DNA of 64,000 bases from an uncultured delta proteobacterium (GTDB lineage Bacteria > Desulfobacterota > Binatia > UBA9968). The DNA lies in NCBI GenBank assembly GCA_963760795.1, contig CAVXEP010000019.1, positions 224,001-288,000 on the forward strand, written 5' to 3'. This document shows, piece after piece, positions 50,808 through 54,748 of the stretch; position 1 is the first letter of the stretch; each line of letters opens with the position of its first letter. The notes under the pieces were generated by a model, which saw nothing but the letters and a program-made list of their open reading frames with translations, was not told where the DNA came from and did not search any database. The translations under genes were made by a program, and so were the position numbers.

Positions 50808-52427
50808 ATGATGCGATTCAAAGGTGCAATTGTCGGATGTCTTTTGATCTCGGAGACGGTTCACGCGCAGCCGGCGCCGAAGACGGTTATAAAACTTGAC
50901 GGTTTGCCGTCTTGTTCAGAGATATTGCCAAGTAAGAAAGAAGTTGCCGGCAATAGCTCGGGGCCGGACGATTGCCGTATCCTTTCGCAGCAGAAGGTGT
51001 TCAGCATTCAAGGCCAGGTGTTCGAGCGCATGGAGCTGCGCATTAGCGGCAACGTCGAAGGTTGGGCGGTGAAGGATGGCCGGCGCGGTAATTATTTCAA
51101 CGACGCGCCGGATATTGTTTTCGCCCAGTCGGAAAATCCCGGCAAACGTTTCAAAGGTATCGCCCGATACGACGGCGGCACCGGCCATGGCATGTCGTTG
51201 TTTTTTCCGGCGGACCCGAAGCATTGGAACGGCAAGCTGTTCGTCACCGCCCATGGCGCCGGTTCCTATGGCTCGGTGGGCACGCTGTTGCCGCGCGATC
51301 CCAAGGCGGACTTCAATTCGCTGCTCAATATCAATCGTTTTGCAGGGTTGTTGATCGACAAAGGTTATGCCGTGGCGCATACGCTGCGCTCAGCCGATCG
51401 CCTCGGCGGCGACGTCGCGGCATCCCTCGAAGACGGCACGACGCTCAACGTCAACGTCAGCACCCACGCCGGTTTCATCGTCAGCTTCGCCAAGAGCGCG
51501 GAAAATATGCTGCAAGCCAAACTCGGGCGCAAGCCGCAGAAGACTTACTTCTACGGGTTTTCGGCAGGCGGTTTTCTTGGCCGGTTGGTGCAGTATCATT
51601 CAGGCTTTAACCGCGACGACGATGGCAGTGCGATGTTCGACGGTTTCATAGTGGACGATGCCGGCGGCGGCGACTGGCGACCGATTTTGCTCGCCGACGG
51701 CAAGGACACGCTGCTTACCAGCGATGACGACAAACGCCGATTCGTGCCGCAGATCGATATCACGCATCAGCTCGATGTCGGTGACAACGACAGCAGCATT
51801 CGCAAAAAACGGGAGAATGCCTTGTTGCTTAAACAAAAAGGGCTGGCGGACAAACATCGCGTCTACGAGATCAAGGGCTTGGCGCATATCGACGCCGGCC
51901 TGGTGTCGCGCGCTGACCATGTCGCGCAAGCACTGGATTTGGGCGGGATTATGGACGCCTTGGTTGACCGTTTGGATGAGTGGGTGGTCGCGGGTAAAGC
52001 GCCGCCGCCGTCACGCGCGGTAATTCCTGCGCTGGGCGGCAAGAGCGAAGCCGTCGCGATGCCGGAGGTCGCCTGCCCTTTGGGCGTCTATCATATTTTT
52101 CCAGAAGTCTTGGGCGAGTCCCTGCGCGGTAGTCAGGAAACATCTTTTGCCGCTTTCGACGGTATGAATCTCGAACCGCTGGATGCGCGCGGGAAGCTGG
52201 TCGACATGAACGGTAACGGGGCGCGGGACCAGCGTGAGACGGTGGAGCAGGCGTGGCGGCGGCTCGGATTGCTCAAGGCCAATGAAACGTTTAACCGTGC
52301 GAAGTATGTTGCCTGCGTAACCCAAGCCGCGACAGCGCTGGCAAAAGACGGGTTCCTGCCGGCGCGGGTGGTGAACCACTATGTTAGTAAGGCGCATTCG
52401 GCGCCGTTGGTTCAGATAGCTCGCTGA
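50808..52427 (+). CDS. Secreted alpha/beta-hydrolase-like (tannase-like) protein
   Basis: Signal peptide, WNGKLFVTAHG, YFYGFSAGG (GxSxG), YEIKGLAHID, LAKDGFL; SD AGGAG. Confidence 0.7.
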   Translation: MMRFKGAIVGCLLISETVHAQPAPKTVIKLDGLPSCSEILPSKKEVAGNSSGPDDCRILSQQKVFSIQGQVFERMELRISGNVEGWAVKDGRRGNYFNDAPDIVFAQSENPGKRFKGIARYDGGTGHGMSLFFPADPKHWNGKLFVTAHGAGSYGSVGTLLPRDPKADFNSLLNINRFAGLLIDKGYAVAHTLRSADRLGGDVAASLEDGTTLNVNVSTHAGFIVSFAKSAENMLQAKLGRKPQKTYFYGFSAGGFLGRLVQYHSGFNRDDDGSAMFDGFIVDDAGGGDWRPILLADGKDTLLTSDDDKRRFVPQIDITHQLDVGDNDSSIRKKRENALLLKQKGLADKHRVYEIKGLAHIDAGLVSRADHVAQALDLGGIMDALVDRLDEWVVAGKAPPPSRAVIPALGGKSEAVAMPEVACPLGVYHIFPEVLGESLRGSQETSFAAFDGMNLEPLDARGKLVDMNGNGARDQRETVEQAWRRLGLLKANETFNRAKYVACVTQAATALAKDGFLPARVVNHYVSKAHSAPLVQIAR

Positions 52428-52601
52428 CAGAAATCGAAACACTCGTGCAGGCTGATTCTTGAGCGGCGTTGAAATTTCTTGGAATTCGCGAAAATACCAG
52501 ACTGATTAACAGGTCGACGGACGCGCAGCCTTTGAGATTTGTCGATTGCTGTGAGTGTAACTTTGAATCAATTTATTTTTTTATGTCGCTCAATTATCTT
52601 A

Positions 52602-52630
52602 TTGACAGAGAAAAGCCACTTTCGTAAACT
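52602..52630 (+). promoter_or_regulatory. Near-consensus sigma70 promoter with upstream AT-rich tract
   Basis: TTGACA(52602-07)-N17-TAAACT(52625-30); AT-rich run at 52566-52601. Confidence 0.75.
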
Positions 52631-52662
52631 AACGATCAGCAGGGAAAGGAGGTGGTCCAGAC

Positions 52663-52704
52663 ATGATTGATTTAAGTACTGGCTGTGAGGTGGCTGAGAC
52701 TTAG
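52663..52704 (+). CDS. Candidate 13-aa micro-ORF MIDLSTGCEVAET
   Basis: ATG 10 nt after AGGAGG; TAG at 52702-52704. Confidence 0.4.
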   Translation: MIDLSTGCEVAET

Positions 52705-52772
52705 GCTCTAGGCGGCGACTCTGAATGGAGATTCGGGCCTAGAGCCTGAGAATCTCCCTCAGCCACCGCAGT

Positions 52773-52825
52773 GGCCCGCTGCACCGGTCGCGCAAGCTGC
52801 CGAGTGTAGCGGGCCTTTTATTTTT
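52773..52825 (+). terminator. Intrinsic terminator
   Basis: GGCCCGCTGCAC/GTGTAGCGGGCC 12-bp stem (one G-U) followed by TTTTATTTTT. Confidence 0.75.
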
Positions 52826-53523
52826 GCAGCATTTTAAGTGCCGAATCGGCGCTCTTTTTGATCTGCCCATTGCCGTTCCGGCTCGCTTCGTTCAACGCCC
52901 GCATAAATTCTTCATCCGGCGACCCTAGACTAGCCAGGGTTACGGCGACTACGTTTTTCACGCGGTCATCTGCATCATGCAAATAAGTAGCTAGAAGCTT
53001 TTGCCGGACGGCGGCATCGACATCGGTTCTCACTTTCAGACTGGTAGCGGCGGCAACGCGCACTGTCGGTTCTTCGTCGTCCAACGCCTGCAACATTGCT
53101 AGCCGACTCTACAGCGTCGTGCAAAGCCAAGTCGCGCAGACAGTAGAGCGCCATGCGTTTCTGATTGGCGCTGCCAGTCACGCATAGTTCTACCAGTAGC
53201 GGGACCACGGCGCCTTCCTGCTGGGCGATGCGCACGAGCAGCAGGCCGTTGGCCCAGCGAATATCCGGTTCGCGGTGATCGAGGGCGTCGAGTAGTGTGC
53301 GAATCACAACTCCCGAAGGCCGGGCTTGATGGCCGAGAATGTAAGCGACCGGCCAATAGTTTCTGTGATCCGCTTCGCTGAGGCGATTATGGAGTGCTTG
53401 TCTAAGAGTTTCGGAAGTCTCGGCCAATGCGATTAGCTTGTCGACGGCGGCGCGGATCGTTGGCTTGTCGGGATGATCGAGGGCGGCGATGAGATCGGTA
53501 ATCTCGCGTGGCTCGGTGGTCAT
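52818..53523 (-). CDS. HEAT-repeat (PBS lyase-like) protein; frameshift near 53105
   Basis: LIAALDHPDKPTIRAA, LLDALDHREPDIRWA, ALDDEEPTVRVAAA across ORFs 52975-53523 and 52818-53096. Confidence 0.78.
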
Positions 53524-53554
53524 GGGCGAACTCCAACGCGAAAGGTTAGCCGAT

Positions 53555-54748
53555 TTAGATTTCTAAAAACTGCGGGCAGTCGGTCAAGTTGCGGTTGCCT
53601 TTGGGCTTGACCACGACGACATCTTCCAATCTGACGCCGCCGACGCCGATGTAATAGAGTCCCGGTTCCACGGTGACCACATGGCCGGTGCGCAAGATCG
53701 CGTCGACGGGTGCGATGCGCGGTGGCTCGTGAATGTCCAACCCCAAGCCATGGCCGGTGCCGTGGAAGAAGCCCTGCATGCGGCCATTAATTTTCCCAGT
53801 CGGGAAGCCGCGGGCTGCGAACATGTTCAAAATATTCTGGTGTACTTCTTTGCCGTTGACGCCGTCGCGGATCTGCGCGTAGCCGATTTGCTGGCCGGCT
53901 TGCACCGTGGCGTAGATCTCTTTTAATTTTTCCGACGCTCGGCCGCGCACCACGGTGCGGCTCAAATCGCCGAAATAACCATTGTGTTGCGAGCGCGGAA
54001 AGATATCGAAGATGATCGAGGTGTTCGCTTTGACCGGCCCGGTGCCTTCATGATGCGGATCGACGCATTGGTTACCGGATGAAATGATCGTGTGGCTCGG
54101 CAGCCAGCCTTGCGCCATGATTGTCGTATTGACCGCGGTCTTGAGCATTTCCGAAGTCAGCCTGGTGCCGTTGAGATAGAGATAGCCGTCGCGCTTGGTC
54201 GTGGTCCGTTTGAGCATGCGGATGCCGGCTTCCAAGCCGAGGCGGGCGATGCGCAGGGATTCGGCGATCTGTTTCACTTCGAGATTATTCTTTGTCTCGC
54301 GCCGGGGCCAGAAGGGGTCGCGCTTGATTTGCACGCTGTAGCCCTTGGCGCGCAGCTGGTCCAACAGGAGCGCGGAGAAATTCGCCGGCACGATCAGCGA
54401 GCGAATGGCGCGTTCGCGAAATATCAAGTCGACGATGTCGATGACCGCCGCCGGCGATTTGCCGAGCTTGCGCAGCTTCTTCTGATACAGGGACAAAGAC
54501 AAAGTCCGGTCGGCATGGGCTTGCTTCTTGGCGCGGTCGATCTCCAGATCGCTCATGACGATGTGGCTATGGTTCTTGTGCTGAAAAAAAATAAACGGAT
54601 CGGGCACGAAGAAGCCGGTGGCGTAAAGCATGTTGGCGTCGCCTTCGCTGGCGGCGTAAAGCAGGATCGCCTGATTCGGTTTGAGTTGGATCGATTGCGG
54701 CGCCGAGCCGCTCGATAGGTTTTTTGCTTTTGTCTTCGCTTCAAACAT
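53555..54748 (-). CDS. Xaa-Pro peptidase family (M24) protein
   Basis: DPHH, IIFDIFP, GDLSRT, HGTGHGLGLDIHE, TVEPGLY, GVRLEDVV; the ORF extension overlapping pccB is not credible. Confidence 0.9.
   Translation of the reverse strand: MFEAKTKAKNLSSGSAPQSIQLKPNQAILLYAASEGDANMLYATGFFVPDPFIFFQHKNHSHIVMSDLEIDRAKKQAHADRTLSLSLYQKKLRKLGKSPAAVIDIVDLIFRERAIRSLIVPANFSALLLDQLRAKGYSVQIKRDPFWPRRETKNNLEVKQIAESLRIARLGLEAGIRMLKRTTTKRDGYLYLNGTRLTSEMLKTAVNTTIMAQGWLPSHTIISSGNQCVDPHHEGTGPVKANTSIIFDIFPRSQHNGYFGDLSRTVVRGRASEKLKEIYATVQAGQQIGYAQIRDGVNGKEVHQNILNMFAARGFPTGKINGRMQGFFHGTGHGLGLDIHEPPRIAPVDAILRTGHVVTVEPGLYYIGVGGVRLEDVVVVKPKGNRNLTDCPQFLEI

Follow-up and report, generated by a model that had tools for sequence, protein, structure and literature searches.

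Ms_IGR-5 is a small RNA (sRNA) that was reportedly first found in Mycobacterium smegmatis by Hfq pull-down, and Rfam holds its family under RF02471 as an "Actinobacteria sRNA". We focus here on a locus on the forward strand, at positions 52638..52826 of a 64,000-nucleotide stretch of DNA from an uncultured bacterium (contig CAVXEP010000019.1; the whole of this stretch is called the window below), whose host belongs to the class Binatia and lies outside the Actinobacteria of the family's name. A preliminary description, made from the letters of the window, had drawn attention to a long 16S rRNA complement, a tiny open reading frame (ORF) and a hairpin at this place. The comparative analysis presented here indicates that the RNA is a sub-threshold member of the Ms_IGR-5 family in a new lineage, and that it is real, conserved and very probably translated. 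We further hold, with moderate confidence, that it acts as a ribosome-operated RNA switch and not as a peptide gene.

Ms_IGR-5 is listed as an RNA-sequencing-validated sRNA in Streptomyces lividans (PMC8079986), in S. avermitilis it makes up one of the two sRNA transcription units with an Rfam match (PMC8780764), and its homologues in M. abscessus and M. smegmatis have significant ribosomal reads (PMC4974804). The M. smegmatis RNA lies between MSMEG_5794 and MSMEG_5795, starts with A, is capped with nicotinamide adenine dinucleotide (NAD) and is called "validated but yet uncharacterized" in a preprint (bioRxiv 10.1101/2021.12.14.472595). It is also listed among the sRNAs of Li et al., whose 12 trans-encoded sRNAs were northern-confirmed according to a review (PMC4109619). 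The geometry of the ORF, its peptide and the match of Ms_IGR-5 to the 16S tail are not mentioned in the main texts of the papers searched, and literature searches for the peptide motifs and for the name of an M. tuberculosis sRNA near Rv0812 gave no match.

The window RNA can be set beside this family and beside several other described systems. First of all, it aligns with RF02471 over the full length, and the two have in common the 5' AAGGAGGUGGUCC and UGUGAGGUGGCUG blocks as well as a long hairpin and a terminator; the ORF architecture of the actinobacterial copies is alike; it differs in scoring below the gathering threshold, in its Binatia host, in its sigma-70-type promoter and in the inner part of the hairpin, which is built differently. 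Second, in leader-peptide attenuators (trpL, pheL and ermCL) a tiny ORF with its stop in or near a stem remodels downstream pairing and the peptide is largely irrelevant, as we propose here. The window RNA, on the other hand, lacks a regulated co-directional gene downstream, its terminator does not visibly compete with the switch helices, and it is a probably discrete, widely conserved unit that recurs in unrelated neighbourhoods. Third, dual-function sRNAs (RNAIII/hld, SgrS/SgrT and SR1/SR1P) are likewise independently transcribed small RNAs that are also translated; their peptides, however, are conserved and active, whereas Ms_IGR-5 keeps only Glu-Val, and no base-pairing targets are known for it. 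Fourth, 6S RNA and mycobacterial Ms1 (see PMC4191392) resemble the proposed switch in concept alone, as substrate-mimicking RNAs that are briefly read and refolded by the read-out; they sequester RNA polymerase, where we propose the ribosome, and there is no relation in sequence or structure. Finally, the 16S 3' "tethering" of mRNA leaders, as set out in a preprint (bioRxiv 10.1101/2025.09.11.675593), involves an over-long duplex of the 5' region of an RNA with the 16S 3' end that is proposed to prime or hold ribosomes. That work concerns the immature pre-16S 3' extension and ordinary E. coli stress mRNAs, whereas the window presents a complement of the mature tail in a dedicated small RNA.

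A default Rfam scan at gathering thresholds returned nothing in the window, because the match scores 42.0 bits and the cut-off of RF02471 is 45. A permissive scan of 52400-52900 aligned 52638-52822 with positions 1-184 of the 184-position model at E = 3e-8, 3 bits under that gathering score. The conserved 5' AAGGAGGUGGUCC and UGUGAGGUGGCUG blocks are identical to the RF02471 consensus and the 3' terminator hairpin is also present; six other weak Rfam matches (miRNA families, an XIST repeat, CC2171 and others, all with E >= 0.02) were dismissed as chance. The RNA had been taken for an unclassified one, with a match to an already described Rfam family named as the finding that would speak against this, and such a match is what the window contains. 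A copy from the same genus scores 46.2 bits, above the cut-off, and one of the 41 genomes of the window's order is over it.

Within the window's genome the RNA is single-copy, and 35 of the 41 genomes of the order carry one RF02471 match each (18/24, 5/5 and 11/11 by family), while none of 14 control genomes matches the model. This tally includes one genome flagged as unpublished (G004; L and G numbers are our own handles for loci and genomes) that is outside the fetched loci. Across a GTDB phylum sample, 4 of 151 genomes match: the window's own, two of the four others of the same class and one of the remaining 146. A pattern scan of 185,579 species genomes gave at least 120 loci, and a collection of viral contigs gave 0 matches to the family pattern. 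The matches listed are mostly from Mycobacterium and other Actinomycetota; among them are also Candidatus Binatia and metagenome-assembled genomes (MAGs) with older delta-proteobacterial labels, as well as single MAGs labelled Ignavibacteriales (2), Zixibacteria, Eisenbacteria (2), Nitrospiria and Blastocatellia. Such labels may err, a "Gammaproteobacteria" locus (L067) looking mycobacterial, and three loci are identical in sequence to order relatives (L134, identical to L010, to a same-genus one; L045 and L068 to same-order ones). Scores against RF02471 are 175.8 bits for Mycobacterium, 91 for Actinomadura, 52 for an Eisenbacteria MAG, 48.6 for an Ignavibacteriales MAG and 40.7 for a Nitrospiria MAG. 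The 16S helix-45 sequence of the host is not of the type known from actinobacteria. Common to the RF02471 loci and the window is an architecture of a Shine-Dalgarno (SD) element, here called SD1, an ORF of 11-15 codons, a stop three codons past GAG GUG and a hairpin of two nested stems, P1 and P2. The features of the locus, all on the forward strand, are as follows, with the evidence for each in brackets.

52602..52630, forward: promoter of sigma-70 type, TTGACA (52602-07), a 17-nt spacer and TAAACT (52625-30) (promoter scan).
52638..52826, forward: the RNA, about 185-189 nt, from a predicted start at A52638 to the T-tract (RF02471 alignment 52638-52822, fold z-score, RNA contigs).
52644..52657, forward: SD1, GAAAGGAGGUGGUC, 14 nt, complement of the organism's entire single-stranded 16S 3' tail (own 16S tail, duplex energy, conservation).
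52658..52660, forward: CAG extension of the 16S complement, not conserved, in a small internal hairpin around the start codon (relatives, fold).
52663..52704, forward: ORF of 13 codons, ATG at 52663 to TAG at 52702-04, encoding MIDLSTGCEVAET (sequence, conservation).
52687..52693, forward: SD2, GAGGUGG, a second Shine-Dalgarno copy within the ORF, at codons Glu-Val (sequence, duplex energy, conservation).
52689..52698, forward: P1 5' strand, GGUGGCUGAG (covariation).
52700..52713, forward: P2 5' strand, CUUAGGCUCUAGGC, which includes the stop codon (covariation).
52727..52733, forward: 5' strand of an alternative helix, S2, GGAGAUU, in the P2 loop (covariation, constrained folds).
52737..52750, forward: P2 3' strand, GCCUAGAGCCUGAG (fold, covariation).
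52751..52757, forward: S2 3' strand, AAUCUCC, which lies between P2 and P1 and is the conserved RAAUYCC motif (covariation, constrained folds).
52758..52767, forward: P1 3' strand, CUCAGCCACC, an anti-SD-like element within the RNA, able to pair with SD2 or SD1 (energies).
52773..52826, forward: intrinsic terminator, a hairpin at 52773-52815 followed by UUUUAUUUUU (minimum-energy fold).

The promoter, the 17-nt 16S complement, the ORF, the two nested stems that bury the 3' end and stop of the ORF, and the terminator (visible in the fold) were all found where the preliminary description had placed them, and we consider in turn what each contributes. First, the 17-mer GAAAGGAGGTGGTCCAG at 52644-60 is the only match in the window even when three mismatches are allowed, against 0.14 expected. 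The 16S rRNA of the genome itself (contig 30 of G000) ends in ...GCGGCTGGATCACCTCCTTTCT, and with this tail the 17-mer forms 16 Watson-Crick pairs and one G-U pair, to which G52643 could add another G-U; the pairing of 16 in 17 positions with a G-U exception, which had been proposed from the common bacterial tail, holds with the organism's own. The computed duplex of SD1 with the free 15-nt 16S tail is worth -25.7 kcal/mol, compared with -8.7 for GGAGG alone. Five exact copies of the 12-mer AAGGAGGTGRTC exist in the 6.58-Mb assembly, namely one in the ribosomal DNA, one at SD1 and three in coding sequence with no start codon behind, SD1 alone among them preceding a start codon.

Conservation separates two parts of this complement. 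Among 34 loci of the order, which were found via the Rfam model with no sequence motif required, GAAAGGAGGTGGTC is invariant (34/34), and the Rfam consensus likewise shows strong conservation of SD1. Of the CCAG at 52657-60, only the first C is part of SD1; this motif is retained in 19 of the 34 and, in the minimum-energy fold, pairs with CUGG inside the window RNA to form a small hairpin around the start codon. The idea that conserved pairing extends toward helix 45 is not supported, and invasion of helix 45 by the 17-mer was ruled out because CCAG is not conserved. Judged from these alignments, the conserved complement covers the single-stranded tail and ends at helix 45, with helix boundaries according to E. 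coli numbering.

A complement to SD1 inside the RNA itself is universal only at 4-5 nt. Some of the long internal complements in actinobacteria are GGAGGACCACCUCC hairpins, and five actinobacterial loci (L157, L161, L188, L199 and L205) have a small hairpin, GGAGG-ACCA-CCUCC, in the apical part of the long hairpin, the 3' half of which is a perfect 10-12-nt complement of the RNA's own SD, i.e. an internal mimic of the 16S tail. Internal complements of this kind may account for the constant G of SD1 at a place where a perfect 16S complement has A.

Second, SD1 is followed by a frame of fixed geometry. Of 154 loci (the 34 order loci and 120 pattern matches, three of them being the same record twice and one the window itself), all but one carry an ORF of 11-14 codons in frame, and among order relatives all differences in ORF length are multiples of three. 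The GAGGTG of SD2 is present in 34/34 of the order loci, which were found without requiring it. The first genome pattern forced TGY GAG GTG; a looser repeat demanded SD1 and GAGGTG only, with the stop unconstrained, and matched 120 of 401 sampled Actinomycetota genomes, a minority of them by chance and 11 of them flagged as unpublished and outside the fetched loci. Sixty diverse actinobacterial loci were chosen from these matches, and in 60/60 the stop lies exactly three codons past GAG GTG, as TAG in 38, TGA in 16 and TAA in 6. Since the identity of the stop changes at a fixed position, these alignments are strong evidence that ribosomes terminate there. A sponge that is never translated is unlikely, given that the fixed stop shows ribosomes reading the frame to its end. 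The earlier suggestion of a micro-ORF RNA with an unusually strong initiation site is supported by a frame, start and stop position conserved across phyla. Start codons in the 60 loci are TTG (34), CTG (12), ATG (5), GTG (3) and other near-cognates (6), and the ORF opens with ATT, ACG, ATA, ATC or CTG in several lineages (L060, L141, L159, L161, L176-L184 and others), which suggests that a very long SD can drive initiation at near-cognate codons. The computed duplex of SD2 with the 16S tail is worth -10.4 kcal/mol, and by a spacing argument SD2 would lie 5 nt 5' of the P-site codon once the stop occupies the A site.

The peptide itself behaves differently. In the wider actinobacterial sample it is unconserved: R, L, P or H takes the place of Cys, the clades have unrelated N-terminal halves and Glu-Val alone is constant, and this constancy is accounted for at the RNA level by SD2 and P1. 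The three C-terminal residues, those after Val, change together with the partner strand of P1. It is here that a true micro-protein gene has to be weighed, in which a 12-13-residue Cys peptide (CxxC/CxC-E-V in Binatia, W-T-C-E-V in mycobacteria), e.g. a metal- or redox-active one, would be the product and the RNA structure would only tune its synthesis. Such a gene would fit the conserved ORF, a Cys codon (TGT or TGC) in 34/34 order loci found without requiring Cys, and a second Cys, two to three residues ahead of the first, that most Binatia copies and the Streptosporangiales type have. The loss of Cys and the unrelated N-terminal residues among the wider actinobacteria speak against it, as do the RNA-level explanation of Glu-Val, the covariation of the three C-terminal residues with P1 and the lack of a conserved partner gene across phyla, and we regard it as improbable. 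A classic type I toxin had been thought unlikely from the start, and we concur: MIDLSTGCEVAET is polar and acidic, and no promoter-like site was seen on the opposite strand in 52000-53600.

Third, the RNA is strongly folded. The 189-nt RNA folds at -96.7 kcal/mol, compared with -68 +/- 4.4 for shuffles (z = -6.5; 0/200 shuffles as low). In stem P1, GGTGGCTGAG (52689-98) pairs with CTCAGCCACC (52758-67), and in stem P2, CTTAGGCTCTAGGC (52700-13) pairs with GCCTAGAGCCTGAG (52737-50). Across 28 close relatives P1 (10 bp) is 98.2% paired, and P2 (14 bp) is 92.7% paired with 4 of its 14 pairs changed on both sides. S2, with seven pairs, has 96.3% of cells paired in the same relatives, and two of its pairs change on both sides (GC to AU in five sequences, AU to GC in one); the observed covariation score was reached by 0/500 shuffles. 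A covariance model built from the 28 Binatia sequences finds 94 of 99 sources across phyla, actinobacterial loci included. In the resulting alignment, which is fitted to the model structure, P1 and P2 together have 90.9% of cells paired, with both-side changes in 20 of 24 pairs (6 of 10 in P1, 14 of 14 in P2), compared with 28-41% paired when the partner is slid by one to three columns. The covariation that the preliminary description had asked after is present for P2 in the 28 relatives and, in the fitted alignment, for both stems across the 94 sequences. The first three pairs of P1 (GGU/ACC) show no both-side change; the second is invariant and the other two vary one-sidedly. Swapping P1 partners between sequences as a covariation control gave a small separation (-17.5 vs -15.6 kcal/mol) and was not relied on. 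Judged by eye, a RAAUYCC-like motif also stands 5' of the P1 3' strand in the wider set of sequences.

These elements can be arranged in more than one way. The two strands of P1 pair at -22.9 kcal/mol, SD1 pairs with the P1 3' strand at -11.6, and the whole P1 and P2 hairpin is worth -51.9. When the end of the ORF is held single-stranded, as it would be beneath a ribosome at termination, the predicted fold contains S2 and, in addition, pairing of the GGUGG of SD1 with the CCACC of P1. S2 and P2 would be mutually exclusive, because S2 uses the P2 loop and the seven bases directly 3' of P2, and P2 is a 14-bp stem that leaves a 3-nt gap between the S2 5' strand and its own 3' strand and none beyond. 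A single continuous helix of the C-rich motif and the P1 3' strand with SD1, tried by hand, was rejected, the parts being in the wrong order.

Taken together, the alignments show that the RNA belongs to the family, that SD1, the frame and the place of the stop are conserved and that P1, P2 and S2 covary; SD1, frame, stop position, P1, P2 and S2 are under selection, and the peptide is not. On this basis we propose the following sequence of events. The RNA would be made from its own promoter, starting about 6 nt 5' of SD1, and SD1 would pair with the entire free 16S tail; no other site in the genome would capture a 30S subunit as tightly. The ribosome would initiate at AUG 52663 and read 13 codons, the amino acids being free and frame and length constrained, and from about codon 4 it would have to melt the 24-bp P1 and P2 hairpin, which holds the last four codons and the stop. 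On termination it would have SD2 at an initiation-like spacing behind the P site and would probably be held there. While the ribosome occupies both 5' strands of the hairpin, the 3' strands set free by it could refold, so that S2 would form and the CCACC of P1 could pair with SD1. Each translating ribosome would in this way convert the SD-open fold of the RNA into the SD-closed one. As to the output of such a switch, we tentatively prefer, at low confidence, that the RNA senses or titrates free ribosomes over a role for the peptide product.

The same elements could instead serve mainly to hold ribosomes. A ribosome-parking or titrating RNA would be to the ribosome what 6S RNA or Ms1 is to RNA polymerase: a perfect SD would capture 30S or 70S, which would be held between the 14-bp SD duplex and the 24-bp hairpin and again at the stop by SD2, and the short read-through would be the release step that refolds and inactivates the RNA. 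An SD far stronger than translation needs (-25.7 vs -8.7 kcal/mol) that is also the most conserved part of the RNA, an unconserved peptide and a hairpin that starts about 11 nt past the footprint of an initiating ribosome would all suit such a role, as would the translation-dependent refolding predicted by the folds and the detection of the RNA in very small metatranscriptome libraries (17 million letters). Contig depths of 2-3 are, however, uninformative on expression level, and, given the strict position of the stop, ribosomes normally complete the frame. The family is described as validated but uncharacterised (bioRxiv 10.1101/2021.12.14.472595). We consider parking unlikely.

Several points weigh against the switch, for which the exclusion of P2 by S2, the hold by SD2, the closure of SD1 and the effect of the flipped state would all have to hold. 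The exclusion of P2 and S2 is a geometric argument and not a computation. The S2 test is confined to 28 related sequences, and relatedness alone can beat a shuffle control; likewise, fitting the 94-sequence alignment to the model structure inflates its share of paired cells. Closing SD1 with the P1 3' strand would involve only 5-6 pairs (-11.6 kcal/mol), on which covariation has no bearing because SD1 never varies, and internal SD1 complements of 7-12 nt occur in only 30 of 210 sequences, compared with 5% of shuffles. In the frame itself, one locus of the 154 (L120) lacks an in-frame start codon, and 18 of the 60 actinobacterial loci have near-cognate starts only (CTG, ACG, ATT, ATA or ATC). 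At the level of the transcript, the RNA contigs described below pass the terminator to 52846-52900 or beyond, which makes the 3' end at the T-tract provisional; they cannot give a true 5' end, a strand or an expression level, and DNA carry-over in RNA libraries is possible.

We now turn to the transcription of the RNA. TTGACA-N17-TAAACT is the sole sigma-70-like site that a promoter scan finds in 52000-53600, matching 10 of 12 positions (shuffle mean 0.6 sites), and TTGAC[AT]-N17/18-TAnnnT sits 6-8 nt 5' of the first A of the RNA in 32/32 order relatives with enough upstream sequence; the start of the window RNA at A52638 is itself predicted from sequence, about 6 nt ahead of SD1, compared with about 8 nt in the Rfam consensus. 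The promoters of the Binatia copies are of sigma-70 type. Mycobacterial copies (L038-L155), by comparison, have GTT-N16-GGGTAC-like sequences about 35 nt upstream of the RNA start, which resemble the SigF-type consensus, and a SigF-like promoter would make the mycobacterial RNA stress- or stationary-phase-induced. At the other end, the terminator hairpin at 52773-52815 followed by TTTTATTTTT is present in the minimum-energy fold and unlisted by a simple terminator scan, and most relatives show a hairpin and a T-run at this position, some of them without a run of four T. The simple scan does list a second terminator-like site at 52837-53 (+). Just past the main terminator and within the 3' end of the convergent gene described below, the hairpin AGTGCCGAATCGGCGCT is followed by CTTTTTG (52837-52863, +), and contigs from RNA libraries reach into or past it.

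Part of 52440-52900 is contained in 12 RNA runs. In four runs from four studies, three contigs begin at 52648 and the fourth covers from 52716, and none spans the promoter, a weak hint that the transcript begins near the predicted start. The conserved promoter (32/32), a convergent gene downstream and metatranscriptome contigs that cover the RNA and not the promoter together support the standalone transcript that had been proposed.

The neighbours of the RNA are an alpha/beta hydrolase gene upstream and, downstream, a convergent HEAT-repeat gene and then an M24 peptidase gene. The downstream gene is convergent in 22/22 tested loci from two families of the order; a HEAT-repeat protein is encoded by 22/22 of the downstream ORFs in these two families and by 4 of 5 upstream ORFs in a third. 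In a scan of 59 neighbour proteins, HEAT repeats were seen only in Binatia-type loci and not beside the RNA in actinobacteria or other phyla. No conserved partner gene was found across phyla, between which the neighbours differ completely, and we read the HEAT-repeat linkage as local synteny and not as a functional link. Across the Binatia order the RNA is accompanied by a Cu-oxidase_4 (PF02578) gene and by a gene for a HEAT-repeat protein of 200-290 aa, in orientations that differ by family (L002-L036, L044, L057, L070, L073 and L126); this linkage was unseen in other phyla.

This arrangement bears on whether the RNA is a cis-acting leader or attenuator, in which translation of the ORF would control terminator read-through into a co-directional gene in some lineages or into the antisense of the convergent HEAT-repeat gene in the window. 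RNA contigs that run beyond the terminator, the second terminator-like site at 52837-53, a co-directional ORF close behind the RNA in several loci of other phyla and a HEAT-repeat neighbour throughout the order could all be read in its favour. The downstream gene is, however, convergent in all 22 loci tested in the two families, the neighbours are wholly different between phyla, and constrained folds showed no antiterminator or alternative pairing that disrupts the terminator. The M. smegmatis RNA, moreover, is among the Li et al. sRNAs, of which the 12 trans-encoded ones are northern-confirmed according to the review (PMC4109619). We regard attenuation as very improbable.

Two further observations concern the genome. 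The convergent HEAT-repeat gene (52818-53523, -) is split in the window into two overlapping frames, one of 92 aa and one of 182 aa. The window differs from a close relative, L004, in which the gene is intact (234 aa; 92.4% identity across 752 nt), by an additional base near 53111, which is either a frameshift or an assembly error. In addition, contigs 12 and 29 of G000 (L218 and L219) share at least 80 identical bases around a GKEVIAKAIH-type motif that is typical of sigma-54 activator ATPases, and could reflect a gene duplication or a repeat.

Few sRNAs are conserved across the actinobacteria, including mycobacteria and Streptomyces, as Ms_IGR-5 is, and it has no known function. The present analysis adds that the family reaches well past the actinobacteria, into Binatia and into MAGs labelled Ignavibacteriales, Zixibacteria, Eisenbacteria, Nitrospiria and Blastocatellia; that what it conserves most is a complement of the whole free 16S tail together with a very short frame whose geometry is fixed, with a stop three codons past a second SD copy and a free peptide; and that the Binatia copies examined carry two conserved folds that would, by their geometry, exclude each other. 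In its widest form, which we put forward as a speculation with little chance of being right, Ms_IGR-5 would be an ancient, multi-phylum analogue of 6S RNA that acts on the ribosome. By imitating an initiation site perfectly it would capture a ribosome and hold it between a full-tail SD duplex and a 24-bp hairpin, a read-out of about a dozen codons to a stop behind the second SD copy would refold the RNA into a closed form, and the RNA would in this way buffer or report the pool of free ribosomes in stress and recovery. An anonymous sRNA is thereby given a concrete hypothesis, that of ribosome capture and translation-driven RNA switching, and if it is true that the RNA titrates or senses ribosomes, this would be a new layer of global translational control.

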